Part shown: positions 1-13,933 of the stretch, piece after piece
Position numbering within the stretch: the stretch's first letter is position 1
How the letters are laid out: the number at the start of each line of letters is the position of its first letter
Origin: an uncultured Gemmatimonadales bacterium
GTDB lineage: Bacteria > Gemmatimonadota > Gemmatimonadetes > Gemmatimonadales > GWC2-71-9
Length of the DNA: 64,000 nt
Direction: 5' to 3'
Assembly (NCBI GenBank): GCA_963716055.1
Contig: CAVQSR010000001.1
Span: 1,350,791 to 1,414,790 of the forward strand
Position numbers and translations under genes: made by a program
The notes under the pieces: generated by a model
Database searches by the model: none
Seen by the model: the letters and a program-made list of their open reading frames with translations, nothing else
What the model was told of the DNA's origin: nothing

Positions 1-3000
1 CCGATTCACTCCCGCTCCACGACATACTGCGGCCAAACGCCGCCTGCGCGATATCTGTTCCAGAGTATCCCACGTCGACAGCTGCTTCAGCTTTCACAGC
101 CCAGTCGGCCGGATTTGGGTAACCAGCCAGCGGCGCGAGATGCAGCTCCTTCAAGGTGTCCATCTGGAGCAACTCTCTGAGGAGTGTCGCATCATTGCCT
201 ACCAAGTGTTGGACGATTTCTGAGGGAAATAGGTCCCCGGGCAGAGTCGCCATGAGTCGCCGCCGATCATCGACGCTCAACCGCTCTAGCGCCGCACTAA
301 TCGTTTCCTCACAGCGCCAGAGCTCGGAATTCTGATGTAACCGCTCGGCCAGCCACTCCATCGCTAGCGATGGGTCTGCCTGGAGAATCTCACGGAGAGA
401 CCACTCGTCACATGGAACGCGCAGGACTGCCCGGTGCCACACCTCGCGCAGAGACTCTCGTACGGTGCCTTTGGGATCAGCAGTCCATTCACCAATCGCC
501 GCTGCCGAAGCGATGAACGGGTCCCGGTGGGATAGGAGCCGCCGGACGACTGCTTCGGGAAGCTCCAAGCGTAGACAGAGACTCTCGATCCACTGCGCGC
601 CGCCATCCAGGCGCTCCAGTGCAAGGTCGATCAGCTCTTCTGGCGTTGCCTCCTCCTGTAGCACCGTGATCGCCGCCATAAGACGCTGTCGACCATCATC
701 AAGGCAGAGTAGGGCAAGCTGGTGACTCGTCGAAGCCTTATCTCGAAGTAATCGCCGTAGAAAGGGCTGCAGGAGGTCGGACGATGCGTTTCCCGCAAGG
801 AACGCCTCAAGCCAGGGTGCGCAGTCGTCCGTTTGATCCGCAATCACCTGGCACACATGCGGGGTCCACCGCGGCCACGGGTTGCTAATGAGGCGACCTT
901 CTTCCTCATGGCGAAGCATCTCGGGAACTGAGAGACCGGGGCCGGCCTGTGCCCATCGTGTCGCCAGTGCTGTCGCTCGCTCTCGCTGTTCCTCTTCCTC
1001 GGCTCGCCAGTCCCCCCGCTCCCGGTGAGGGAAGAGCGTCTCGAAGTCAGCGTCGACCGAGGCGGACAAGTCGACGCCGAATCGATCCGCGACTGAGGCT
1101 ACCCAGTGAAGAAACCCTGAGTGACCTTTGCCTGCATCCGCAAGATCGCGCAACATCTCGCCGGCAAAGGAGGCGGCTTCAGCGGCAAGGGGCTCCGGTA
1201 GCGGTCGAGACGGACGCGGATGATAGGCCCACGCAGACACAACGTCTTGCACGGGTTTCCAGTGCTGTACCGGCTCGTTGGCAAGTCGCCCGCGAACTGC
1301 TGGCCACATTGCACGAATCGCTCGCGCCTCCTCAAGAGACACGAACCCGAATGAGAGCGTGAGATTTCGGCCACTGCCCGGTTCCGGCTCGGTGCGCTCG
1401 AATTCCGGGGACAGTGCCAATACGAGCGCATGCAGCCCGACTGCCGGGTTCCGACCTTCGTCCAACCAGTGCTGCGCAGTCTTCAGCAGCTGGGTTCGCC
1501 GTTCGAGCACGGACGGCGTGCCGGGCACTGCCGCATGGATCCAGTCGGCAACCTGTCGCAGCGCATGATCAGGATGCGAATGCAGCGCGCGGTTGTCTCC
1601 AATGGCACCGCCCAGCAGTATCGGGAGCGCGACCTCAGGCGCCGTCTCCAGCATGGTCCGACCGATTCGTCCGACCCATTCCGGATGCTCCGTCGCAATC
1701 CAAGTCGTCTCACGTCGGCCGAGTCGGGAATACAAAGCCCACAGGTCATGGGAGCCGCAACGCTCAATAAGGCTCCGCACCAAGTCCTCTGAAACCCGGG
1801 CGCCTCGATGTTGAGCCCGGACAACCGTAAGTGTCAGTTCCTCCACGTTCGGTGCGACCGAAAGCAGGGGTTCGATCGGCAGGGACGTAGGACCAGCGAA
1901 GAACACGTCCCGCACCAGTACATCGCGCAATGCTGGCGGTCGCACAGTGAGTCGTTCTCGATCGACCTCAACCAATACGCCGCCGGCCGCAAGGTGCGAG
2001 ACCCGTTCGCGAAGTCTGGAGGCAGGCTCCTCCAAGTAATCCGCCACGGCCTGCATGGCCATCCCTGCATCGCCGCCCGCTGCAAACACGGCGAGCAACG
2101 TCTTCGTGTCACCGCCAATAAGTCGGTTGAACACAAAGGCGATCTCTTGCGCCAGAGCATCGCCTTGTGCTACAGCCCTCACGTCTCCTCGCAAGCACAG
2201 ATTGGAAAGTGTGACGGCTAGGCCCGGCTTCCCTTCAGCCTGATTCACAATCTCTTGGATCAGTCCGCGCGGGCCGCCGATGCCCGCGCCTCTCACAACT
2301 GCCGCAATCTCATCCTGAGACAATAGGTCCAACCCACGCACTGATGCGGATGGTACATCCAAAGCTCGCGCGACGTCATCGCGGCTCCCGGGCCACGAGT
2401 CGGCGATGATACGGAACTCACCCCCCATCTCGGATCGCAGGCGACGCAGCTGCGGCAGGCGGTCGAGTTGTAGATGCGCGTTCTCGACAACGAGTGCAGA
2501 AGGATTCTCGCGACGAATACCCGCGGCTATCTCACCCAAGTCGGGCGTATGAGCAAAGAGGCCTCCCTGCTCCTTGGCGAAGTGGTAAAGCAGGAATGTC
2601 TTCCCCACGCCCGGTTGTCCAACGACCAGGAGATCGCCCGGAGTGTGCACCAGCCATAGCATGTCCTGCGAGCGCCCAACCAACACATCACCGATCACGG
2701 ACCGCCCGGGCTGCGGCATCACAGACAGTGGCGGAGGCCCCCCGACGATCCCGAGCAACTCTTGGCACCACTCGGGACGGCGATACAGAAGGTCTGTGAA
2801 CGCAGGGCGATCGTGAATCTGTGTTAGTGTGAAGCCTAGATCGCGCGCCACCTTCTCGAGGGCACTACGCCGCCGGGCAGAAACCGATTGTGAGGTAGCG
2901 AATACGACTGCTCTACGTGTTCCACCACGGGCTAGGTACGACTGGAGATTCCGACGCAGATTGCGACCGAGATCGGCGCCGATCGTCGTGACCAGCGGAA

Positions 3001-3181
3001 ACGGAAGTCCTGCGCCATCGGCAATGGCGCCGTCCATACCCGCGTCGTCGCCACCGCGGATCGGCACGAGGGTGGGGTGTACAGCACCGAGGAGGTCGGC
3101 TGCACAGCGTTCGAACAGCTCGGGGTCGAGCTTGCCGCCTAGTCCTGCTTCGATGTCACGATAAAACGAGTCGCGTATCAT
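1..3181 (-). CDS. Large P-loop NTPase (AAA/STAND-like) with Mrr-like N-terminal domain and long alpha-helical C-terminal region; 3' end runs off the window (>=1060 aa seen)
   Basis: Absent from the ORF track because it has no in-window stop. My translation of the minus strand from ATG 3181..3179 stays open to position 2. All listed minus ORFs in 1-3180 have starts congruent to 0 mod 3; this frame is 1 mod 3. Begins MIRDSFYRDIEAGLGG. Walker A VVGQPGVGKTFLL (Lys codon 2602..2600). Walker-B-like ALVVENAH about 40 aa later. N-term LFERCAADLLG..IRGGDDAGMDG resembles the start of Mrr_cat. Confidence 0.75.
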   Translation of the reverse strand, partial: MIRDSFYRDIEAGLGGKLDPELFERCAADLLGAVHPTLVPIRGGDDAGMDGAIADGAGLPFPLVTTIGADLGRNLRRNLQSYLARGGTRRAVVFATSQSVSARRRSALEKVARDLGFTLTQIHDRPAFTDLLYRRPEWCQELLGIVGGPPPLSVMPQPGRSVIGDVLVGRSQDMLWLVHTPGDLLVVGQPGVGKTFLLYHFAKEQGGLFAHTPDLGEIAAGIRRENPSALVVENAHLQLDRLPQLRRLRSEMGGEFRIIADSWPGSRDDVARALDVPSASVRGLDLLSQDEIAAVVRGAGIGGPRGLIQEIVNQAEGKPGLAVTLSNLCLRGDVRAVAQGDALAQEIAFVFNRLIGGDTKTLLAVFAAGGDAGMAMQAVADYLEEPASRLRERVSHLAAGGVLVEVDRERLTVRPPALRDVLVRDVFFAGPTSLPIEPLLSVAPNVEELTLTVVRAQHRGARVSEDLVRSLIERCGSHDLWALYSRLGRRETTWIATEHPEWVGRIGRTMLETAPEVALPILLGGAIGDNRALHSHPDHALRQVADWIHAAVPGTPSVLERRTQLLKTAQHWLDEGRNPAVGLHALVLALSPEFERTEPEPGSGRNLTLSFGFVSLEEARAIRAMWPAVRGRLANEPVQHWKPVQDVVSAWAYHPRPSRPLPEPLAAEAASFAGEMLRDLADAGKGHSGFLHWVASVADRFGVDLSASVDADFETLFPHRERGDWRAEEEEQRERATALATRWAQAGPGLSVPEMLRHEEEGRLISNPWPRWTPHVCQVIADQTDDCAPWLEAFLAGNASSDLLQPFLRRLLRDKASTSHQLALLCLDDGRQRLMAAITVLQEEATPEELIDLALERLDGGAQWIESLCLRLELPEAVVRRLLSHRDPFIASAAAIGEWTADPKGTVRESLREVWHRAVLRVPCDEWSLREILQADPSLAMEWLAERLHQNSELWRCEETISAALERLSVDDRRRLMATLPGDLFPSEIVQHLVGNDATLLRELLQMDTLKELHLAPLAGYPNPADWAVKAEAAVDVGYSGTDIAQAAFGRSMSWSGSES

Positions 3182-3407
3182 TCTTCAGAGCCTACCACCA
3201 ATGTCGGCCGCTTGGAAACAGCACCGCGACGACGCTAGTAACACTAGCAGAGCCGCACCCTTAGTCTGCGAGGTACTGGATTACGACGGCTCCGTCACCA
3301 GATCCACGATCATTTTGACCCGGGATTCGATCTCCTGGCGAGTAGGCTTCACCGTCTGAAAAACGAAGTTGATCGTCTTGGCCTCGCTGCTCCCTCACGC
3401 GGTCGCG

Positions 3408-3572
3408 CTAATGCGTATTGAAGTCGTTGTATGGTGCCTTGAGCGCTAACGCGACGTAGATCTCGAGAAGGGCTTGCCGGCATGGATCCGGCTCTTCTAC
3501 AAAACGGATCTTCATCTTTCGGATGCGCTTCCTAGCGAGGCGGAACGCAGTGACGAAGCCGTCATCCGTCAT
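3408..3572 (-). CDS. Small hypothetical ORF (54 aa), start overlaps the stop of the upstream hydrolase gene
   Basis: Below the ORF-track size cutoff. ATG 3572..3570 lies in GATGACGGATGA and overlaps the hydrolase stop (3564..3562). Reads MTDDGFVTAFRLARKRIRKMKIRFVEEPDPCRQALLEIYVALALKAPYNDFNTH*. No recognisable domain. Confidence 0.2.
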   Translation of the reverse strand: MTDDGFVTAFRLARKRIRKMKIRFVEEPDPCRQALLEIYVALALKAPYNDFNTH

Positions 3573-5691
3573 CAAGTGGGCGCGTGAACCGTCCGCTCTG
3601 TAGCTCGCTCACAACAGTCGAGATCCCAGCTAGCATAAGAATTATTGTGAACACAAGTAGTAGGTAGTTGAAGAGCCAGTCGGACGGCAGCCCTTCAAGG
3701 AGCAGCCACGAAAGACCGAAGACCATCCACACAATCATCGCCATGAAAAAGAGAGTGACTCGCATCCTACCGCGCGGAAGAACCCCGTTGCCTCCAGGCC
3801 ACTGGTTGGCCAGGACCCGATCCTGCTCCGCGCGGACCCAGAATCGCCATAAGCTGCGCAGGAGGCCGCAACTGGCCACGTGGATGAGGGCGATCCCCCC
3901 CAGAAGTACCGCGACCCGGGTAGCCTTTGACGCGACAGCGGGTAGCCAGGCTGGCAGTTTGAGTGGTTGCGGCACCAATTCTGAATATTTGAACCATACA
4001 GAGGCGCCCACAGTTAGCCAGGCAATCCCGACAGCGCGGCGCGCCAGCCGCAGCCAACCGACCCGCCAGGCCGCGCGCGCATCCACAGCAGGCGGGACCG
4101 GTGAAAGCTCGTCCCTCCAGGGGCTCATCGCTGTCTCCGCGCACTCCCTTAGGACGCGCAGAACGAAGCCATCGAGATTGTCCCAATAGGCAGAGTGGTC
4201 GGCAAGCCGCGAGCCAAGGTTCCAGATCCGGACCGATTCCGGTACGCCTGGTTCGGTGGTTCTCATGGGACCGTTCGGCACGGGGTCATGCGACGCGTAG
4301 AGGTCGATCCACCGATGCAAGCCCAGGGGTCTTCGTACTTGCTCGACGAGGCTCTTCATGCGCTGAGAGAGGATCCGGTATGAGAATATCCCTAGCACTA
4401 CGAATGCTGCGGCGAGGAATGTTACGCGATTTAAAGGCGCGTGCTTGAAGGGCACCGAACGGCTAAGGGATCCCCATGCGACGAGTGTTCCGAGAAGGAA
4501 CCCCGAGAGTAGCAAGAAGGATAGCAATGCGCTCAGGCGTTGCAACCACGGCTTCGAGACCAGCAAGGCAGCCGACCGTGTCCCCAGGTTGGGCCACAGC
4601 TTCAAAGCTAGGTAGATAATCAATCCAACGAATACTGCGACAGCCGAAGGAGCAAGCGCGACTCCGACGGCCTTCAGAATGTCCAGGAAGGTGATCCTTT
4701 GAGCTATGACATCTACAAACAGCCAGAGAGACAATCCGATGGCGATGACGATGGCTATGGTAGCAAGCAATGTGGGGTTCTTCTCTACCTTGGCAAATCT
4801 GGCTGACAAAACTTTCAGACTGACGAGCAGCGCCGTGCCAGCGCCGAATGTCACTAGGCTGTCTGGAACGACACGTGGCCCCAGGGGATCTTGGCGTGTC
4901 GCCTCACTAGTTTCTGCCGCTGTCCCGAGGATCCCACCCAGCGCGTCCATCGCGACGGCCGCGCCTTGCGAATGGGCGACGACGACCGTGGTCTCGCAGC
5001 ACTGCTTCAGTCGTGCGAGTCCCCCAAGGACCCGCGTGCGAATCAGCGCGGCCCGGATCGGACTCTTGACGAATGCGAGGCTATCGCCGACGATCGCCGC
5101 GAACCCTCCCCTCGCAGCGAGGATCCGGGTCCGCAGTTGCGGGATAGGGAGCAGTCCAGCGACTAGTCCGATTGCCAAAATGGCGATGTACAAGGGCGCG
5201 AACAGCAGAGCTATGGGGAGCCAGGCGTAGGTTTTGACTACCGAGACGATTTTATTGCTGACCTTGCCTGACTCGGCTGCGGTCCAGTACCTCTGCGCAA
5301 TGCGGAGGGCGATGGACCATGGCAGCGCCGTCACGCTCCAGGAAACAAGCTCTCGGTAGCTCGGAGCCAGGAAGGCGTCCGCCCACCACCCCTCGCAAAG
5401 CAGCCAACTCTCCTGACTTTCGCCCGCTCGTAGCCGAACAACCGCTTCCGCGCGACCCTCGTCATCTGGACCAGCCTGCAACGCGGTCGCGCTAACCCTG
5501 TAGTTCGTCGCTCGGCCGATTGTCTGCAATAGTACGTCGCCCCACCGAACGAGGGTTTCCCCGGACCGCTGTGAACCGATCCCATGTACGAGGAGCACAC
5601 CGAGCTGGTATTCCTTCGGCGCTTGGAGGGAAACACCAGAGAGGTCGTGGCCCCCCTCACTGTGATCGAGCCGACGGGTTGGTGTCATCAC
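3562..5691 (-). CDS. Membrane-embedded alpha/beta-hydrolase (lipase/esterase-like serine hydrolase), 709 aa
   Basis: ORF-track protein. Oxyanion-type LLVHGIGS (res 33-40), nucleophile elbow VVVAHSQGA (Ser241), then DLYASHDPV (Asp469) and LADHSAYW (His499). Hydrophobic helices at about 155-182, 307-441 (four) and 550-697 (about four). GGGAGA lies 5 nt upstream of the ATG. Confidence 0.75.
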   Translation of the reverse strand: MMTPTRRLDHSEGGHDLSGVSLQAPKEYQLGVLLVHGIGSQRSGETLVRWGDVLLQTIGRATNYRVSATALQAGPDDEGRAEAVVRLRAGESQESWLLCEGWWADAFLAPSYRELVSWSVTALPWSIALRIAQRYWTAAESGKVSNKIVSVVKTYAWLPIALLFAPLYIAILAIGLVAGLLPIPQLRTRILAARGGFAAIVGDSLAFVKSPIRAALIRTRVLGGLARLKQCCETTVVVAHSQGAAVAMDALGGILGTAAETSEATRQDPLGPRVVPDSLVTFGAGTALLVSLKVLSARFAKVEKNPTLLATIAIVIAIGLSLWLFVDVIAQRITFLDILKAVGVALAPSAVAVFVGLIIYLALKLWPNLGTRSAALLVSKPWLQRLSALLSFLLLSGFLLGTLVAWGSLSRSVPFKHAPLNRVTFLAAAFVVLGIFSYRILSQRMKSLVEQVRRPLGLHRWIDLYASHDPVPNGPMRTTEPGVPESVRIWNLGSRLADHSAYWDNLDGFVLRVLRECAETAMSPWRDELSPVPPAVDARAAWRVGWLRLARRAVGIAWLTVGASVWFKYSELVPQPLKLPAWLPAVASKATRVAVLLGGIALIHVASCGLLRSLWRFWVRAEQDRVLANQWPGGNGVLPRGRMRVTLFFMAMIVWMVFGLSWLLLEGLPSDWLFNYLLLVFTIILMLAGISTVVSELQSGRFTRPLDDG

Positions 5692-5807
5692 AGTCTCCCA
5701 GTGAACCGTTTCAGGTGGTGTGACTCATTCAACTAGTTATTTGACGTCCGAATGACTGCGCCGAGCGCATCAGCATCTGCGTGCCATGGACCGCCGGTAT
5801 GGCCCGT

Positions 5808-6068
5808 TTACTCTGGTCGTTCGTCTGGTGCTTCTGTAGCCTCGGCGGACAGGTCCTCGCGGAGGAGTCTGATGATCCCGGGGACGTGCCGGCGAGCTGG
5901 CGCTGTCCGATTTCTCTCCCAGTTGTAGACCGTTGTCTTGTCCACGGCAAGTCGCTCGGCCACCTCGCGCTGCAGTAACCCCAATTCGAGCCGCCGCCAG
6001 TGGAGCCGGTCCCCAAGGGTCTTGATCTCCTTCGGATAGCCTACCGGCAGCGGCTTCCGTCCCTTCAA
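5808..6068 (-). CDS. XRE-family helix-turn-helix transcriptional regulator (about 86 aa from TTG start)
   Basis: The C-terminal 86 aa of ORF 5808..6188 read KEIKTLGDRLHWRRLELGLLQREVAERLAVDKTTVYNWERNRTAP, a classic HTH_3/XRE pattern. The track's N-terminal extension is R/G-rich and overlaps the comM fragment. In-frame TTG at 6068..6066 chosen as start (uncertain). Confidence 0.6.
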   Translation of the reverse strand: MKGRKPLPVGYPKEIKTLGDRLHWRRLELGLLQREVAERLAVDKTTVYNWERNRTAPARRHVPGIIRLLREDLSAEATEAPDERPE

Positions 6069-6097
6069 AGTGGCATGGCAAAAAGGCAACGCAGGAA

Positions 6098-6619
6098 TGT
6101 CCCTACGGCTACGCGGGCGACCCCCACCACGACTGCACCTGCGGCCCCCCGGACGTGCAGCGTTACCTCGCGCGCGTCTCGGGGCCATTGCTCGACCGCA
6201 TCGACATCCACCTGGAGGTGCCGGCTGTGAAGTACCGCGAGCTGTCCGAGCGCGCGGCCGGGGAGCCGAGTGCCGCGATCCGCGCGCGGGTGGACCGGGC
6301 GCGGACCACGCAGCGCGCGCGGTTCGCCGGGCGGCCCGGCGTGTTCGCCAACGCGCACATGGGGCCGCGCGACATCCGGGCCCACTGCCGCGTGAGCGAC
6401 GGCGCGGAGGCGTTGCTGCGGACGGCGATCACCCGGCTTGGCCTTTCAGCGCGAGCGTATCACCGCATTCTCAAGATCGCCCGCACGATCGCGGATCTGG
6501 ACGGCGCCGCGGGCCTGGAGCCGAAGCATGTGAGCGAGGCGATTCAATACCGCAGTCTGGACCGGCGGGGCGGAATGACACCGGGTCCCGTCGTTCCCAT
6601 TTCGACACACGGGCGGTAA
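6098..6619 (+). pseudogene. comM: 3' fragment (C-terminal about 173 aa) of comM/yifB Mg-chelatase-like ATPase, 5'-truncated
   Basis: In-frame reading from 6098 gives CPYGYAGDPHHDCTCGPPDVQRYLARVSGPLLDRIDIHLEVP...SARAYHRILKIARTIADLDG...HVSEAIQYRSLDR. This is the conserved Cys cluster and C-terminal domain of the ComM/YifB family. The approximately 330 N-terminal residues (Lon-like and AAA+ parts) are missing, and upstream sequence in that frame (WHGKKATQE) is unrelated. Confidence 0.8.
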
Positions 6620-6671: not shown

Positions 6672-6829
6672 GATTTACGGAATTCACCACAGCCGGCACG
6701 GTCATTGCTTACTCCCGGTCCGGAGGATGGTCCTCCCACAACGACAAGAGCACACCCGGGGCGACCCGGGGTCGCAAAGCCAGGGGTCTCTCCGAGACAG
6801 CCCAGCTGCCGAAAGTGAGATGAGCGCGC

Positions 6830-7186
6830 ATGAACAGCTTCGATTCAGGGCCCGCGGCCGTACGATCGGCCGCCCGCCAATCCCAGCAGCTGGTGACCTA
6901 CCTCCTCAACGGACCGGATGACCCCGCGGCGTGGGCCGAGCTCGCGCGCCTCGCGGACGGCATCCGGGCCGAAGCCGCCGCGCAGTCGCTCAGTGAGCTG
7001 GAGGGGGTCGCCGCGAGCATCGCGGCCATGGCGGACGTCGCCGTGCTCGACGCGCACACCACGATGGAGCTCGACGCCGCGGCGGACCGACTCCTCGTCC
7101 TCACGGACCGGGCCTCGCAGTCCCTGGAGGCGCTGACGCTGCCGGAGGAAGACGCTGTCGCGGGGCCCTACTCGGATGCCGGGTAG
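6830..7186 (+). CDS. Hypothetical protein (118 aa), Ala/Leu-rich helical
   Basis: ORF-track ORF in an otherwise empty interval. No recognisable motif, and coding status not verified. Confidence 0.35.
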   Translation: MNSFDSGPAAVRSAARQSQQLVTYLLNGPDDPAAWAELARLADGIRAEAAAQSLSELEGVAASIAAMADVAVLDAHTTMELDAAADRLLVLTDRASQSLEALTLPEEDAVAGPYSDAG

Positions 7187-7214: not shown

Positions 7215-8270
7215 TCAGGCGCGGCCGACCTCGGGCCTACCGCTCAGGTCGGGATGGTGATCTCGCAGCCACGCGACCGAGTCCGATAGCGTCACGCGGC
7301 CGTCGCGGCTGCGATAGTCGAGCTCCGCCGCGGCGTAGCGCGACGTCACGGCCCAGTGGTGCCGCGCCATCTCGATCACGACCGGGTCGGGCAGAGCGGA
7401 CGTCGGTCGCCCGACGAGCCGGCTGAGCCGGTCCGCCAGCGCCGCGAGCGCCCACGCGAGGTGGTAGGGCAGCACGCGCCGCGGCGCCGGCAGGCCCGCT
7501 ACGTCTCCCGCCAGGGCGAAGAACTCCTCCACGCCGCACACCGTGCCCGGCAGGTGGTACACCGGCCGGGCCGCGGGCCGCTCCATGATGCGCACGAGCG
7601 CCGCGGCCACGTCGCGCACGTCGGCGAAGTGCATCCCGCCGCGAATCACGAACGGGAGCCGGCCCCGCAGGTAGCGCACCAGGTGTCCCGTGGAGCGGAA
7701 GCGGTGGTCACCCGGTCCGAGCAGCATCGGTGGGCGCACGATCACGAGGTCCACGCCCAGCTCCTCCGCCAACGCCCGCGCCCCGCGCTCCGCCAGGATC
7801 TTCGAGTGGTAATAGGGCCAGCGGGCGACGCGCTCCTCGCAATAGGGCGCGTCCTCGTCCGCCCACTCGGCGGCGCCGCGAAAGCAGCCGACGGTCCCGG
7901 TGCTCGACACGACCACCAGCCGGCAGCGATGGACCGCGGCGAGGCGCACCGCCGCGCGCGTGCCCGCGACGTTGGTGTGGTACATGTCGCCCGGCTCGCG
8001 CCGGCTGTGGCGGACGACGGCCGCCAGGTGGAAGATGCCGCCGAGGCCGTGCACGCCGGCGTCCGCCGACCACGCCTCGGGTTCCGTGACGGATCCCGCG
8101 AGCACCGTGACCGCGGCGAGTGGTCGCGTCCACTCCATCCGGTGCCAGGCGTCGGGGGAGCGCGCGAGCGCGATCACGCGACGCTGAGGGTCGCCGCGCC
8201 GGAGGGTGAGCAGCAGGTGGCGTCCGAGGAAGCCACCGGCGCCGGTGACGAGATACGGACCGTCGGTCAG
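7215..8270 (-). CDS. NAD-dependent epimerase/dehydratase-family SDR (candidate acyl/alkyl-DHAP reductase)
   Basis: C-terminal 351 aa of ORF 7215..9689: YLVTGAGGFLGRHL (Rossmann GxxGxxG), YYHSKILAE (YxxxK). The upstream part of that ORF is R/P/A junk antisense-overlapping the next gene. Start is uncertain: only CTG 8270 sits next to the upstream stop, with no ATG/GTG/TTG nearby. Confidence 0.75.
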   Translation of the reverse strand: MTDGPYLVTGAGGFLGRHLLLTLRRGDPQRRVIALARSPDAWHRMEWTRPLAAVTVLAGSVTEPEAWSADAGVHGLGGIFHLAAVVRHSRREPGDMYHTNVAGTRAAVRLAAVHRCRLVVVSSTGTVGCFRGAAEWADEDAPYCEERVARWPYYHSKILAERGARALAEELGVDLVIVRPPMLLGPGDHRFRSTGHLVRYLRGRLPFVIRGGMHFADVRDVAAALVRIMERPAARPVYHLPGTVCGVEEFFALAGDVAGLPAPRRVLPYHLAWALAALADRLSRLVGRPTSALPDPVVIEMARHHWAVTSRYAAAELDYRSRDGRVTLSDSVAWLRDHHPDLSGRPEVGRA

Positions 8271-10630
8271 GCCACGGGCTCCGGGGCGCGCCCGGGATCG
8301 CCCACGGCATGGCCGGGCGCGGCGCGCAGCGCCCCGAGCCGCTGCTCGAGCGGCTCGTCCCCCGCACCCGTCTCGAACAGGTGGGCGAACTGGTTCCCGA
8401 GCGAGCGCGCGATCTCCGGATCGAGGTCGGGGGGCAGACTCAACGCGCTTTCGAGCACCCGCCCGCCGCGCTGCTCGATCGCGCGGCGGAGCCATGCCGC
8501 ATCGACGCCGGGGACCGGATGCCGGTCGAGGAAGCCTCGCAGGTGGTACGTCGTCGTGACGGTGGCGCGCGCCAGGCGCGCGAGCACCTCCTGGCTCGCG
8601 GCGTAGACGTCGTCCGCTGGGTCGAGCGGAATCGGAGCGCCGCAGGCGATGTGGATCCGTCCCAGATCGATCCGGCCGAGGAACACGCGCACCGTCCAGG
8701 CGAGCAGCGCGCCGAGGCGCATCTTCGGCTTCGGCGCCCCGGCCAGCTCGCGGGCGAAGCTCGCTTCTTCGGGCACGCGCTCGTAGGACAGCGCCACCGG
8801 GAGCAGCGCGCAGGGCTCGCCCGTGGCTTGCACCGAGCGCAGCAGGCCGCGCTTGGGCGGCAGGAACCGGCGCGAGCGGCTCCGCTGTCCCTCGATGAAC
8901 ACCTCGAGCGCCCGGCGCTCGCGCACGAGCGCGCGCACCCGGGCCGTCACGGCCGGGTCCTCGCGCCCCTCCCCCCGGGTCACGTAGAACGCCTGCAGGC
9001 GGGTGGCGAGCCACCCCACGACGGGAATACGCGCGAAGTCGACGGCCGCGGCCACGTAGGGAATGGGGACGCCGAGGTCGCGCCGCGCGAAGAAGAGATA
9101 GGAGCACAGGATGAAATCGAGATAGCTGCGGTGCGACGGCACGATCACGAGCGGGCAGTCCGGGGGCACGGCCCGGCGGGCTGCTTCGAACGACGGCAGG
9201 TCCACCGTGATTCGCTCGCAGCAGCGGCGCAGCACCTTCGTCACGAGCCAGGCCGCGGCGCGGAGCAGGCCGGTCCCGTCGGGTTGCCGTCGGGCCCAGC
9301 GCAGGTCGCCGCCGTGGCCCGGATGGCGCCGGCCGGCGAGGCACCACTGCGTGTCGTCGCGCCGCAGAAGGTACCGATACACCCCGCGGCTCACCGTGGC
9401 GACGTACCCCCCGGGATCGAACCCCGCGTCGAGCGGTGCCGCCGAGCGGAAGTCGAAGGTATGCCGGGTGAAGTAGCGAAACACGCGGTTGGCGTGGGTG
9501 AGGCGCGCCCGCAGCTGGGCGGCCGCGCGGCGCGCGCGCGGCGTGCGCATCCCGGCCGCCGCGATGGGCAGCCGGTGGTGCATCGCGTCCGCGACGCCGA
9601 AGGCCAATCCCGGCGGCCCGAGGTAGCGCATGGCGGGCGGCCGCTCGACGGGATGCACGGCGAAGAAATCCTGGATGCGCGTCCAGCATTCCCGCACGGT
9701 GGCGCTGCGCGCGACGCCCGCCACCGCGTGCTGAATCAACGGCTCGCTCCCGGCGGGAGGCGCTCCGTTACAGGCGAGCAGGATGCGGGTGGCCACTTCG
9801 TCCACCGGGATCAGGTCGAGGCGCGCGTCGGGGTCGCCCACCACGGCGCGCAGGTGCCCCGATCCCAGCAGCATCACGAAGGTGGCGAACCCGGCCGCGC
9901 TGTCGATCCACCCGGGAAAGGGATAGCGCCAGCTCGCCGAAATGATGCTGGGGCGCACGATCGCGAGCGGCACCCCGCCGCTCCGCGCCACCAGCAGATG
10001 CTCGGCCAGGGACTTGGTGAACGTGTAGGTGTTCGGGTGACCGGAGCGCCGGAACAGCTCGGCGGCGCGGGCGCCGCCGTTCAGGATGTCCCCGTAGAGC
10101 TCCTCGGCGGGCGCCGGGAGCGGCGCGAGCGTTTCGCCGGCGGACGTGTGCGCCCCGGCGGCGGGCGTCACGTACGCGGTCGACACGTACACGAGCCGCT
10201 CGAGTCCGGCGCACGCCCGCGCCAACTCGAGCAGGTTGAGGCTCGCGGCCACGTTCCACCGCGCGGCGTCGGCCAGCGGATGATCGAACTCCACCGAGGC
10301 AGCGGCGTGGAGCGCGTGGGTGGTCGTGCCCGTGATCGCGTCCCGCGCCGCGGGGTCGAGAGCGAGACCCGGGTGCTCGAGGGTGCCCTCGACCACCCGA
10401 ACCAACCGGGTCCAGTCCCGCGGCAGCCCGACGAAGCACGCCGAGGGGGCCACCTCGCGGCGGAACCGCTCGTCGGCGCCGCGCGCACCCTTGCGGCGGA
10501 TCACCACGGTCACCTGGGTGGTCTCGAGCTCGTCGCGCCGGCGCAGTAGCTCCTCGAGCAGCACCTTTCCCAGGAAGCCCGTGACGCCCGTCAGCAGATA
10601 GGCCCGCCCCGCGCCTCCCCCCTCCCGCAT
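8267..10630 (-). CDS. Fusion protein: fatty acyl-CoA reductase (FAR) domain + PlsB/GNPAT-type acyltransferase (DHAPAT-like) domain, 787 aa
   Basis: From internal ATG 10630 (MREGGGAGRAYLLTGVTGFLGKVLLEELL). FAR motifs TGxTGFLGK and NTYTFTKSLAE. C-terminal half has acyltransferase blocks VPSHRSYLDFIL (HxxxxD) and FIEGQRSRSRRFLPPKRG. Confidence 0.85.
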   Translation of the reverse strand: MREGGGAGRAYLLTGVTGFLGKVLLEELLRRRDELETTQVTVVIRRKGARGADERFRREVAPSACFVGLPRDWTRLVRVVEGTLEHPGLALDPAARDAITGTTTHALHAAASVEFDHPLADAARWNVAASLNLLELARACAGLERLVYVSTAYVTPAAGAHTSAGETLAPLPAPAEELYGDILNGGARAAELFRRSGHPNTYTFTKSLAEHLLVARSGGVPLAIVRPSIISASWRYPFPGWIDSAAGFATFVMLLGSGHLRAVVGDPDARLDLIPVDEVATRILLACNGAPPAGSEPLIQHAVAGVARSATVRECWTRIQDFFAVHPVERPPAMRYLGPPGLAFGVADAMHHRLPIAAAGMRTPRARRAAAQLRARLTHANRVFRYFTRHTFDFRSAAPLDAGFDPGGYVATVSRGVYRYLLRRDDTQWCLAGRRHPGHGGDLRWARRQPDGTGLLRAAAWLVTKVLRRCCERITVDLPSFEAARRAVPPDCPLVIVPSHRSYLDFILCSYLFFARRDLGVPIPYVAAAVDFARIPVVGWLATRLQAFYVTRGEGREDPAVTARVRALVRERRALEVFIEGQRSRSRRFLPPKRGLLRSVQATGEPCALLPVALSYERVPEEASFARELAGAPKPKMRLGALLAWTVRVFLGRIDLGRIHIACGAPIPLDPADDVYAASQEVLARLARATVTTTYHLRGFLDRHPVPGVDAAWLRRAIEQRGGRVLESALSLPPDLDPEIARSLGNQFAHLFETGAGDEPLEQRLGALRAAPGHAVGDPGRAPEPVA

Positions 10631-10646
10631 GCGATTCACGGCGCTC

Positions 10647-12462
10647 TCAGGACCGGAGCCGCGCGGCCGGCGGTCCGGCCACCAGCTGATTGCCGGCTCC
10701 GAAGACGTTGGCCGGATCGATCGCCCGCTTGACCTCCGCGGCCCACTCGAGGGCGGCGGGCGACATGATGCGGGGCAGGAACGCACGCCGCAGCTTGCCG
10801 ACGCCGTGGTGGTGCGAGAGCGATCCGCCGGAGTGCAGAATCTCGTCGCGAGCCGACCGCTCGAGTTCGGCGAAGACCGCGCTCGGCTGCTCCACTCCCT
10901 TGTGGTAGAACGCCAGGTAGAAATAGACGCACACGCCCGTCTGGTAGACCTGCGTCACCCGGCAGCTGATGAAAGGTGTACCGGGCAGGCCGCGCGCCGC
11001 GTGCTCGGCGGCGATCCGCCGCTTCACGTTGTCGCACAACGACAATGCCTGGCTCCACGGCACCGACGTCTCGAACGACTCGCCCAGGATGTAATGCCGC
11101 ATGACGAAGTCGCGGATGTAGGCGATGCCGAAGGTCAGCTGGTACCCGCGGCGCCCGTTCTCCGCGCCCGCGCCCATGCCGCCGTGGCGCCGCGCGAGGC
11201 GGCTCACGGCGCGCCGCTCGGTCCGGACCTCGTCGGCGGCCGCCTTCGAAGACCAGCGTGCAGGCGACCATGCGGTCCGGATCGAAGCCGCGCAGCCGCG
11301 TGACGAAGAACTTCTCGGCCTGCCGCTTGAGCGCCGCCAGGCCCTCGGCCGGGCTTGAGCGTCATGCTCAGCTGGAACTGGAGGTTGTCCACCAGCCGCA
11401 CGCTGGCGGGCGGCGTCGCCTCCCGCGTGAGATCGTACAGAAAGCCGACGCCCGCCTCGAAGGACGGGAAGATGAGCGAGTCGTAGCGCGTGACCTCGGG
11501 CAGCGGGAAGATCTTCACCACCGCCCGGGTGATGATGCCGAGGGTGCCCTCGGAGCCGAAGATCCAGCGCCGCGCGTCGACGCCGACCGACTCGCGCGGC
11601 GCGACCGCGGGTCGCGACACCGGGCCGCGCGCCGTGACCACGTCGACGTCCAGCACCAGGTCCTCGATGTTGCCGTAGCGGTTCTTCTTCATGCCGCTGC
11701 AGTGGGTCGCGATCCAGCCGCCCAGCGTCGAGAACTCGACGCTGTCGGGCTCGTGGCCCAGGGTGAAGCCGTGGGCCCCGAGCTGCTCCTCGATGTGGCG
11801 CCCCACGGCGCCCGCCTCGATGCAGGCCATGAGGTTCGTCGGGTCGATCCACAGGATCCGGTTCAGCCGTTCGCATGTCCACCGACACGATCGTCCGCTC
11901 CTCGTCGCTCGGGCAGCGGAGCGCGTCGGTGACGTTCGTGCCGCCGCCGTAGGGCACGAGGCAGACGTCGTGGCGCGCCGCCGCCTCCACCAGCGCGACG
12001 ACGTCGTCCTCGGTGCGGGGGTACACCACGAGATCGGGCAGCCGTTCGAGGCGCCCGTACTTGATGAGCGTACATCTCCTCCAGCGTGTGGCCGTGGCCG
12101 TGGCGCAGGCGGATCGCGGCGTCGGTGGTGACGGCGTCCGCGGTCAGGAAGGTCCGCAGCTCCGCCACGAACAGCGGGTGCGCGCGCGGCGCGGGCACGT
12201 CCGGGGGATACGCGGAGTCGTGCGTGTCGCGGGGATCGAGCGCGACCCCGAGGACGCGGCTGGTCCACGGGAGCAGATCGGGCAATTCGGCGCCGCTCAA
12301 GGGGTAGCGGGAGCCCGTCAGCGTGACGTGCCCGTTGGGCAGCACCGTGAATGCCGAGTCGCGAAAGCCCCACACGTCGAGGCTTTCCTCGTCGCCGGCG
12401 TGGTGGGGCGGATCGCCCGGCACGATGCGGTCATCGGCGTCGAGCGCGAAGCGGGGGGCCAT
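10647..12462 (-). pseudogene. Alkyldihydroxyacetonephosphate synthase (AGPS, FAD-linked oxidase) interrupted by four frameshifts
   Basis: Homology runs through four track ORFs in three frames. 12462->~12066: WGFRDSAF..GHTLEEMY. ~12066->~11872: IKYGRLERLPDLVVYPRTEDDVV..PYGGGTNV. ~11870->~11350: LNRILWIDPTNLMACIEAG..GWIATHCSGMKKNRYGNIEDL. ~11350->~11240: EGLAALKRQAEKFFVTRLRGFDPDRMVACTLVFEG. ~11240->10647: AADEVR..GYQLTFGIAYIRDF..HHHGVGK. Length is 1816 nt, not a multiple of 3. Confidence 0.8.
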
Positions 12463-12664
12463 GGAACGCTCCGGGTAGCGGCGCGGTAACGATACAGGCA
12501 GGGGGCGGGGCAGGCCAGCGCGGCGCGCGGAGGCAGGGATTGCCGAAGAACCGCCGAAAGGCGGCTATCCGGGACGCGCAAAGGTGTGCCGACATCTCCG
12601 TTTCCGGACGAGTCCGCTCTGTCCGTCGCAGACCGCCTCCGACCGCCATCTTTTCGACCGCGTC

Positions 12665-13702
12665 TCAAAACCCCGGCAGTGCCACCATCCCCACCGGCTC
12701 CCCCGCGTTCATCGCCGGCGTGGGGACCACGTACATCATGACGCCGCCGATCGGTGCCCGCAGCACCGCCAGAGTGTCGCCGAAGAAGTCCGTGACGGCG
12801 CCCAGCGTCGCCCCCGCCGCGACGGCCTGACCCTCGACGACCTGGGGATACCACAGGCCGGTGACCGGGCTGCGGACGACCTCGGTGCGCGCGAACTCCA
12901 CGGCAGCGGGCAGCGGGTCGGGATCGCCCGGCAGCATGCGCAGATACCGCAGCAGGCGAAACACCCCGCGCAGGTTGTGCTGGACCATGTCTTCGTCCGC
13001 CAGGCCCAGGAATCCCGCCTCGCTCGTGATGGCTGGCGTGCCGCGCAGGTGCGCGGTGTTCTGGGTGTACACCCCGATGCGCAAATCCGGCGGGCGTAGC
13101 GTGTCGATCACGATGCGGGTGTGGCCCCAGGCGAGCGCCAGCTCGCGCGCCAGTGAATCGGCGCGCGCATCGAGTCCGAGCCGGGCGGCGTAGGCGTAGG
13201 GGCGCAGCATCTCGTTGCCATCCCCCGAGTGCATGTCCACCAGATAATCGGCCCGGTCGATGATCGCGGTCGTGATCGCCTGCGCGATGCGCTCGGAGAC
13301 GGTACCGTCGGCGCGGCCCGGATACATCCGGTTCAGGTTCTTCCCGTCGATCGGGCTGTAATAGACCGTCCGCTTGAGAAAGGACGGCAGGTTGGCCACG
13401 TGCACCATGAGCACGGTGCCGGAGAGCGCCGCCGGATCGAGCTGCGCCCGGGCGCGCTGGAGTGCCACGATCGGAGCGACCTCGGCACCGTGCGTGCCCG
13501 CGATCAGCGCGAGCGTGGGCCCGGGCCGCGCGCCCCGGATCACGGTGATGGGGATGCGCGTGCCGGAATCGGCGCCGGCCGGCACGACGAGATACCCTGA
13601 GACTTTTTCTCCCGCGCGCGCCGTGACCGGGCCGACGGTGAGCGGCGCGGGCTGCTGCAGCGTCATGGCGAGCGTGAGGGCGGTCAGCGTGAGCACGGGC
13701 AT
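12665..13702 (-). CDS. Succinylglutamate desuccinylase/aspartoacylase (AstE/AspA, M14-like) family protein, secreted
   Basis: Start reset to ATG 13702, preceded by AGGAGA. Signal-like MPVLTLTALTLAMTLQ. Family-typical GTHGAEVAP, NLNRMYPG and DMHSGD motifs. Confidence 0.8.
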   Translation of the reverse strand: MPVLTLTALTLAMTLQQPAPLTVGPVTARAGEKVSGYLVVPAGADSGTRIPITVIRGARPGPTLALIAGTHGAEVAPIVALQRARAQLDPAALSGTVLMVHVANLPSFLKRTVYYSPIDGKNLNRMYPGRADGTVSERIAQAITTAIIDRADYLVDMHSGDGNEMLRPYAYAARLGLDARADSLARELALAWGHTRIVIDTLRPPDLRIGVYTQNTAHLRGTPAITSEAGFLGLADEDMVQHNLRGVFRLLRYLRMLPGDPDPLPAAVEFARTEVVRSPVTGLWYPQVVEGQAVAAGATLGAVTDFFGDTLAVLRAPIGGVMMYVVPTPAMNAGEPVGMVALPGF

Positions 13703-13933
13703 TCTCCTGAGCGGGAAGGAAGCCGCGGCCAATCTACGCCGGCGCCGCGGGCGCGCGAGCGCCGCGCCTCGTCCATCATCCTCACGACTGTCACCGACAT
13801 CGTGGGGTTCCTGAGCTTCCTCGGCTTGGCGACGGCCGCGGCGGGCGTGTTGTGACCGGCCGGCCGCGTTTGCGCCGGGCACGATCGCGGCCTATGATTC
13901 GCCCAACCCCCTACTCGTTTCCCCGGAGGCCGA

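Follow-up and report, generated by a model that had tools for sequence, protein, structure and literature searches.

Four frame breaks in the alkyl-dihydroxyacetonephosphate synthase gene of a Gemmatimonadota ether-lipid operon: a probable local consensus artefact

Known ether-lipid operons and long-read consensus errors

In Myxococcus xanthus, the operon MXAN_1676-MXAN_1675-MXAN_1674 encodes alkyl-dihydroxyacetonephosphate synthase (AGPS), a fusion of FAR with an acyltransferase, and an NAD-dependent epimerase-family protein (PMC13012113). The bifunctional enzyme FARAT of Tetrahymena and Dictyostelium is built from an N-terminal FAR and a C-terminal DHAPAT-type acyltransferase (PMC13012113). 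AGPS is represented by the peroxisomal enzymes of mammals (4BBY) and Dictyostelium (2UUU).

The stretch of DNA analysed here, 64,000 nucleotides of an uncultured Gemmatimonadales bacterium (the window), has the same gene order and domain content as MXAN_1676-1674. It differs from the M. xanthus operon in that its host belongs to the Gemmatimonadota, its AGPS frame is broken four times, and its function is predicted from sequence. The second protein, FAR-DHAPAT, has the same domain architecture as the FARAT of Tetrahymena and Dictyostelium, but it is bacterial, 784-787 aa long, and its activity is a predicted one. The AGPS of the window resembles the mammalian and Dictyostelium enzymes in that it can be aligned with 4BBY over its full length and has conserved catalytic residues. 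Unlike them, it is a bacterial protein without peroxisomal targeting context, has a shorter N-terminus and, as deposited, is untranslatable beyond 199 aa.

Frameshifting indels are recognised as typical residual errors of long-read consensus sequences (PMC9262707), and related strains are collapsed into a single consensus by metagenome assemblers (PMC8302730). Like the artefacts described in these two papers and in the proovframe preprint (10.1101/2021.08.23.457338), the AGPS lesions are small indels in an otherwise conserved gene on a multi-megabase contig. Unlike typical long-read artefacts, they are not located mainly at homopolymers and are confined to one 835-nt block; their link to mixed haplotypes is a deduction from the sequence. 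The organism most likely lacks these frame breaks. All four probably represent a local artefact of consensus building or polishing, in which reads from a mixed population (or from a paralogue) would have been combined over the conserved core of the gene. A local artefact is favoured because the gene shows no decay, the lesions fall at variable codons only, the ancestry signal around them appears blurred and they are clustered.

Gene content of the locus

AGPS, the FAR-acyltransferase fusion and the epimerase-family SDR are collinear on one strand of the window:

7215..8264, minus strand: SDR/NAD-dependent epimerase-family gene (Pfam Epimerase, NAD_binding_4), candidate acyl/alkyl-DHAP reductase; intact, start codon provisional.
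8267..10630, minus strand: FARAT-like FAR-DHAPAT fusion (Pfam NAD_binding_4/'male sterility' reductase plus acyltransferase); intact.
10647..12462, minus strand: AGPS; interrupted, 604 codons plus stop when repaired.

The same arrangement is found in the relatives L145 and L146, both of which are intact. Judged by the predicted products of its genes, the locus is an ether-lipid operon of the DHAP type, a kind already known from bacteria (the MXAN_1676-1674 type).

The repaired AGPS protein contains the Pfam domains FAD_binding_4 (PF01565, E=7.7e-36) and FAD-oxidase_C (PF02913, E=4e-38), which are also present in all of its close homologues. Residues 29-591 align end-to-end with residues 94-656 of the guinea-pig enzyme 4BBY (E=4e-178). 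The match to 2UUU is also strong (E=2.5e-94), and D-lactate and glycolate dehydrogenases are far weaker matches (E ~1e-25). Arg419, Tyr578 and the His615-617 loop (4BBY numbering), which we take from the AGPS structural literature to be the catalytic residues, are kept in the 4BBY alignment within 'ASVRLVDN', 'CVYFY' and 'SLSHHHGVGK', respectively. Their catalytic roles are said to have been described by Nenci et al. in 2012. By domains, similarity and residues, the repaired protein is an alkyl-DHAP synthase (EC 2.5.1.26), with the exchange of acyl for alkyl as its predicted reaction.

Intact homologues of AGPS number thousands. The nearest are in Gemmatimonadota MAGs, and others are in Acidobacteriota and Myxococcota. 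The closest protein homologue, P0001, is intact and has 86% identity to the repaired protein. The closest available relative is L145, a JGI metagenome contig, with 83% nucleotide and 86% protein identity to the window AGPS. Scans of genome contigs and of metagenome contigs with the repaired AGPS found no conspecific, the best match having 78% identity in both.

The FAR-DHAPAT frame starts either with GTG at 10630, giving 787 aa as in the database protein P0121, or with ATG at 10621, giving 784 aa. The protein is 100% identical to P0121, its relatives cover 95-100% of the query, and it carries the HxxxxD and FIEGxRSR motifs. The SDR is 67% identical to its L146 orthologue in a gap-free alignment, and its N-terminal GxxGxxG region is in frame. 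The window has a GC content of about 72% except for the first 6 kb, and the ORFs of this low-GC left end gave no matches in PADLOC and Pfam scans.

Frame breaks in AGPS

The AGPS sequence moves through minus-strand frames 1, 2, 0, 1 and 2 in succession, according to six-frame translation and the ORF listing, and no single ORF spans the gene. A tblastn search with P0001 as the query produced five collinear HSPs in frames -2, -3, -1, -2 and -3. A GC3-phase HMM, applied to the whole window, switches within AGPS at 12069/70, 11873/4, 11347/8 and 11245/6. Instead of one uninterrupted frame, the gene consists of five frame segments, and translation from the ATG at 12462 ends at 11863, giving 199 aa. 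The three analyses bear out the first-pass annotation of the window, which had described AGPS as broken four times among intact long neighbours, and the HMM switch points all fall within the four junction intervals that it had proposed.

The exact lesions were mapped by nucleotide alignment to L145 and by codon alignments to 19 relatives. In the direction of translation, the gene is composed as follows:

12070..12462, minus strand: segment 1, codons 1-131, from ATG 12462 to Tyr131; dN/dS 0.18 against L145.
12066..12069, minus strand: lesion J1, 'GCTC' for one codon (GCC/GCG Ala or CTC/CTG Leu in relatives); net +1.
11874..12065, minus strand: segment 2, 64 codons, Ile133 to Met196; dN/dS 0.07 against L145.
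11870..11873, minus strand: lesion J2, 'CGAA' for one codon (Ser/Arg/Gly/Lys/Glu in relatives); net +1.
11351..11869, minus strand: segment 3, 173 codons, Arg198 to Pro370; dN/dS 0.14 against L145, GC3 0.95-1.00.
11350, minus strand: lesion J3, a single 'G' where every relative has a Lys/Arg codon (AAG/AAA/CGG/CGC); net -2.
11242..11349, minus strand: segment 4, 36 codons, Ala to Gly406; dN/dS 0.09 against L145.
11235..11241, minus strand: lesion J4, the 7 nt 'GGCCGCC' for two codons (x-Arg in relatives); net +1.
10647..11234, minus strand: segment 5, 195 codons plus TGA (10649-10647), with the YFY and HHH catalytic motifs; dN/dS 0.16 against L145.

Segment 3 corresponds to the FAD-binding core, and no other part of the gene is as conserved. 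The lesions comprise three 1-nt insertions and one 2-nt deletion. Each had earlier been taken for a 1-nt indel, which is correct for J1, J2 and J4, all insertions, but not for J3, which is the deletion. All four displace the frame in the same direction, and there is no mutual compensation. When the lesion bases are corrected, a single frame of 604 codons plus stop is obtained, in agreement with the length of about 605 codons that had been expected of the repaired gene.

A shift in the same (+1) direction would be required at all four lesions, and the coding signal is perfect in each segment. Both properties would suit programmed recoding, either by four +1 ribosomal frameshifts or by transcriptional slippage or editing. 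The sites are not conserved, however. Comparison with relatives, which had been proposed together with the annotation, was run, and each of 120 homologues, one of them at 86% identity, reads through the four positions without a frame break. Inspection of the four contexts by eye revealed no slippery, stimulatory or methylation-type motif common to the junctions, and the lack of a common slippery or stimulatory motif also speaks against recoding. We know of no precedent for four programmed shifts in one bacterial gene, and this explanation is scarcely credible.

Clustering of the breaks

The four AGPS breaks are the only frame switches away from stop codons that the GC3-phase HMM detects in about 58 kb of high-GC coding sequence. 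Between 6.1 and 64 kb, all other phase switches mark gene boundaries, with an in-frame stop no more than about 100 nt away. The long neighbours, a 1473-aa Big_1 protein, a 771-aa Ser/Thr kinase and the 784-aa FAR-DHAPAT, are unbroken. Four uniformly placed indels would fall within 835 nt of some 58 kb with p ~1e-5 (4 x (835/57900)^3, a hand calculation), and therefore a local cause is needed, not chance. A search by tblastn for a second AGPS copy, which could have been the source of cross-mapping reads, found none within the 64-kb window.

The clustering bears on two suggestions of the first-pass annotation. It had considered random assembly error to be unlikely, and uniformly random error is indeed excluded, but a local artefact is the favoured explanation. 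It had also offered, as an alternative to gene loss, a local sequencing problem in a GC-rich stretch. A local problem agrees with the variable codons and the apparently blurred ancestry described below. GC-richness as such is not likely to be its cause, because the remaining window is equally GC-rich.

Random errors typical of the technology, for instance miscalled homopolymers or a patch of low coverage, might have produced the breaks without any population heterogeneity. Frameshifting indels are a known property of long-read consensus (PMC9262707), and J2 and J4 could be read as expansions of one base to two. J1 is outside a homopolymer, however, and J3 is a loss of 2 nt. Errors of this type would neither select variable codons nor coincide with a block of altered ancestry, nor would they be expected to cluster to the observed extent (p ~1e-5) in an otherwise clean window. 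We consider this origin improbable.

Tests for gene decay

The breaks could alternatively mark a genuine, very recent pseudogene, in which four indels arose within a short time, for instance in a single tract of error-prone repair or of recombination. Such a pseudogene might represent the start of the loss of the DHAP-type ether-lipid pathway, as the annotation had suggested in calling AGPS the first casualty, or the disappearance of a pathway that another route had rendered redundant. The lesions do stand in the deposited sequence. Both the pseudogene and either form of pathway loss appear unlikely in view of the following results.

No column that is at least 98% conserved among 120 homologues is changed in the repaired AGPS (0 of 207), whereas the intact homologues deviate at 0.92 such columns on average and at 7 at most. 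The dN/dS ratio against L145 is 0.146 overall and 0.07-0.18 across the five segments (Nei-Gojobori). The segments have GC3 values of 0.95-1.00 and the central block one of 0.971, and no in-frame stops are present in the repaired segments. Raised dN/dS, lost conserved residues, eroded codon bias and stops, the marks by which pseudogene decay was judged, are all absent from AGPS, and the indels would have to be its sole decay. With 0 of 207 columns deviating, a dN/dS of 0.146, a GC3 of 0.97 and intact catalytic residues, the proposal of pathway loss finds little support in the gene.

An AGPS that had drifted long enough to collect four indels should also have collected substitutions, and none are seen at conserved columns. 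Mutation-accumulation data from E. coli reportedly give about one indel per 10 substitutions. If this 1:10 ratio is assumed under neutrality, three further indels with zero conserved-column change have a maximum likelihood of about 0.005 (hand calculation). Four indels with essentially no substitutions are improbable under ordinary mutation spectra. In addition, three of the four lesions are insertions, contrary to the usual deletional bias; bacterial pseudogenes are reportedly biased towards deletions, as Mira, Ochman and Moran are said to have noted in 2001.

The genes downstream of AGPS had been named as a place where further decay might be seen. FAR-DHAPAT and SDR are both full length. The dN/dS of FAR-DHAPAT is 0.225, higher than the 0.146 of AGPS, and the protein deviates at 6 columns that are at least 98% conserved, compared to a family mean of 1.1. 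The excess may point to weaker constraint on the pathway and to that extent would favour a pseudogene. Comparably isolated homologues reach 4-5 deviations, however, two of the six are common to the relative P0123, only one of the six is non-conservative, and the catalytic motifs are intact.

Placement of the lesions at variable codons

J1-J4 each affect one or two codons, all of them hypervariable. The invariant residues Y131, D195, L368/K369 and E405/G406 are their neighbours, and because invariant residues directly flank each lesion, this placement is not a matter of alignment choice. The column entropy percentiles are 0.83 for J1, 0.90 for J2, 0.78 for J3, and 0.90 and 0.73 for the two codons of J4. 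Four random sites would all lie within the top ~22% of variable columns with p ~0.003 (0.002-0.005). Protein variability should be of no consequence for real mutations or for random read errors. The preference for hypervariable codons argues against a pseudogene as well, since real mutations should not show it.

The odd strings at the lesions can be read as two overlapping codons, both attested in the family. They are GCT(Ala)/CTC(Leu) at J1, CGA(Arg)/GAA(Glu) at J2, GGC-CGC/GCC-GCC at J4, and at J3 the G that is common to AAG and CGG. All four lesions (4/4) are at hypervariable codons, as would be expected of an artefact that arises where related haplotypes differ by multi-nucleotide changes.

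Proposed origin of the lesions

We infer that the source sequence is almost certainly a long-read metagenome assembly, because it is a 2.47-Mb contig from an uncultured, soil-type phylum; the read mixture and the consensus mechanism are likewise deduced. Related populations that occur together, or a paralogue, could have contributed reads that piled up on the 835-nt J1-J4 stretch when the consensus was built or polished. Where the haplotypes differed by the replacement of a codon at several nucleotides, the gapped pile-up would give either the union or the intersection of the two codons. GCT and CTC would thus become GCTC, CGA and GAA would become CGAA, and AAG and CGG would be reduced to G. 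Lesions of +1 or -2 would be left exactly at variable codons. The cell itself would hold an intact, functional AGPS, and its co-transcription with FAR-DHAPAT and SDR would make up a complete ether-lipid operon of the DHAP type.

The rest of the window, about 58 kb, is without frame error, which means that the consensus is generally good. This counts against a blended consensus and, conversely, is compatible with a pseudogene. Also to be counted against a blended consensus is the form of the lesions, which do not have the classic nanopore error signature: insertions make up three of the four, and at least J1 lies away from homopolymers.

If the breaks are an artefact, calling AGPS a frameshifted pseudogene would wrongly delete the step that forms the ether bond from the predicted lipid metabolism of the organism. 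They might then also provide a possible sequence-only flag for blended consensus in long-read MAGs. Its components would be lesions restricted to variable codons within a gene's most conserved block, no further sign of decay, and a local ancestry signal that is blurred. Should the breaks be real, the gene is an ordinary, very young pseudogene in a known ether-lipid operon, with modest bearing on the distribution of alkyl-ether lipids in Gemmatimonadota.

Ancestry of the J1-J4 block

At the nucleotide level, no part of AGPS is more conserved than the J1-J4 stretch of 835 nt. On either side of it, in segments 1 and 5, informative sites strongly favour a grouping of the window with L145 (62:15:23). 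In the centre, the three quartet topologies are nearly equal (25:16:26 informative sites). The difference between flank and centre has a Fisher p of 0.001-0.03 in four of five quartets, a post hoc comparison of moderate significance. Among the quartets with L146, also examined post hoc, p is 0.004-0.005 in two of three and 0.12 in the third; over all the quartets, p ranges from 0.001 to 0.2.

If the ancestry of the block differs from that of its flanks or is blurred, recombination might have imported the block, which would suit a pseudogene. If the lesions are real, a foreign or mosaic tract of about 835 nt would have entered the AGPS core, and four indels, amounting in effect to a single recent event, would have inactivated the gene. 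We regard this sequence of events as doubtful. A blended consensus of related haplotypes, the explanation preferred here, would also leave an ancestry signal of this kind.

Within the central block the window is nearer to every relative than the relatives are to one another, which is a consensus-like property, although this was observed post hoc. Both the ancestry signal and this 'centroid' signal are partly confounded by the stronger conservation and the higher GC3 of the AGPS core. Tajima-type relative-rate counts for the block give 49.6 unique changes for the window versus 69.1 for L145, a marginal difference that is confounded by GC3. At J1, the similarity that is specific to L145 falls abruptly.

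The AGPS leader and upstream genes

The gene for alkyl-dihydroxyacetonephosphate synthase (AGPS) is preceded by a 5' leader that is conserved at the DNA level between the window and L145, the contig of the closest intact relative:

12463-12520, minus strand, window leader, upstream of the AGPS ATG
8496-8560 of L145, corresponding leader

In a nucleotide alignment, the stretch CCTGTATCGTTACCGCG is identical in the two leaders. The gene caller has run the AGPS open reading frame (ORF) of L145 through the leader, which results in the 630-aa protein P0001. Six-frame translation of the window leader does give similar residues, but in another frame than that of the AGPS ATG. The conserved leader is therefore more likely to be a regulatory element than coding sequence, as judged from these alignments and translations.

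The gene directly upstream of AGPS belongs to the AstE/AspA family:

12665-13882, minus strand, succinylglutamate desuccinylase/aspartoacylase family gene
3411-4442 of L145, corresponding position

Three genes (EAL, AraC-type HTH and hypothetical) are inserted between this gene and AGPS in L145, whereas there are none between them in the window. Thus the local synteny of the two differs.

Substitutions in FAR-DHAPAT

The gene 3' of AGPS encodes a reductase-acyltransferase fusion:

8267-10621, minus strand, FAR-DHAPAT

Its product carries six substitutions at conserved columns, defined as those at least 98% conserved among 119 homologues, compared to a family mean of 1.1. The substitutions are L to F at residue 190, P to R at 514, E to D at 528, L to V at 535, F to V at 574 and D to E at 614. 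The acyltransferase half contains five of these changes. Two of the substitutions, P to R and E to D, are shared with the homologue P0123.

Contigs ending within AGPS

Two short-read metagenome contigs matched by the repaired AGPS protein, L133 (Ga0256867_10004899) and L058 (DASYRI010000009.1), terminate within AGPS. Both end at or just past residue 406-407, the position of the frame lesion J4, and these ends might be due to a branch in the assembly graph where the conserved core borders on less conserved sequence.

Operon neighbors in a second intact relative

The AGPS/FAR-DHAPAT/SDR operon is intact in L146:

1000-11792 of ENA ERZ21829562 ctg256349l, region with the operon and its neighbors

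Upstream of the operon is a gene for a four-domain acyl-CoA dehydrogenase. Downstream is one for a B12-binding radical-SAM protein, possibly an additional lipid-modifying partner. The epimerase-family SDR of L146 has been called from an internal Met, so that the annotated protein lacks its in-frame GxxGxxG N-terminus.

The left end of the window

The GC content is 58-63% at positions 1-6102, compared to about 72% elsewhere in the window. GC3 periodicity is absent from this region, which a GC3-phase HMM labels 'non-coding', and two very long ORFs are found there:

2-3184, minus strand, ORF of more than 1061 aa, continuing past the window edge
3562-5691, minus strand, ORF of 709 aa

Pfam and PADLOC scans of the two ORFs gave no match for either. 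This low-GC end may be a horizontally acquired island. To the right of this region there is a riboswitch match:

6740-6814, plus strand, c-di-GMP-I-GGC riboswitch variant (RF03167; bit score 59.8, gathering score 59, E=1.3e-11)

Shortly 3' of it, the GC3-phase HMM finds a small segment of coding sequence on the plus strand, spanning roughly 6883-7186.
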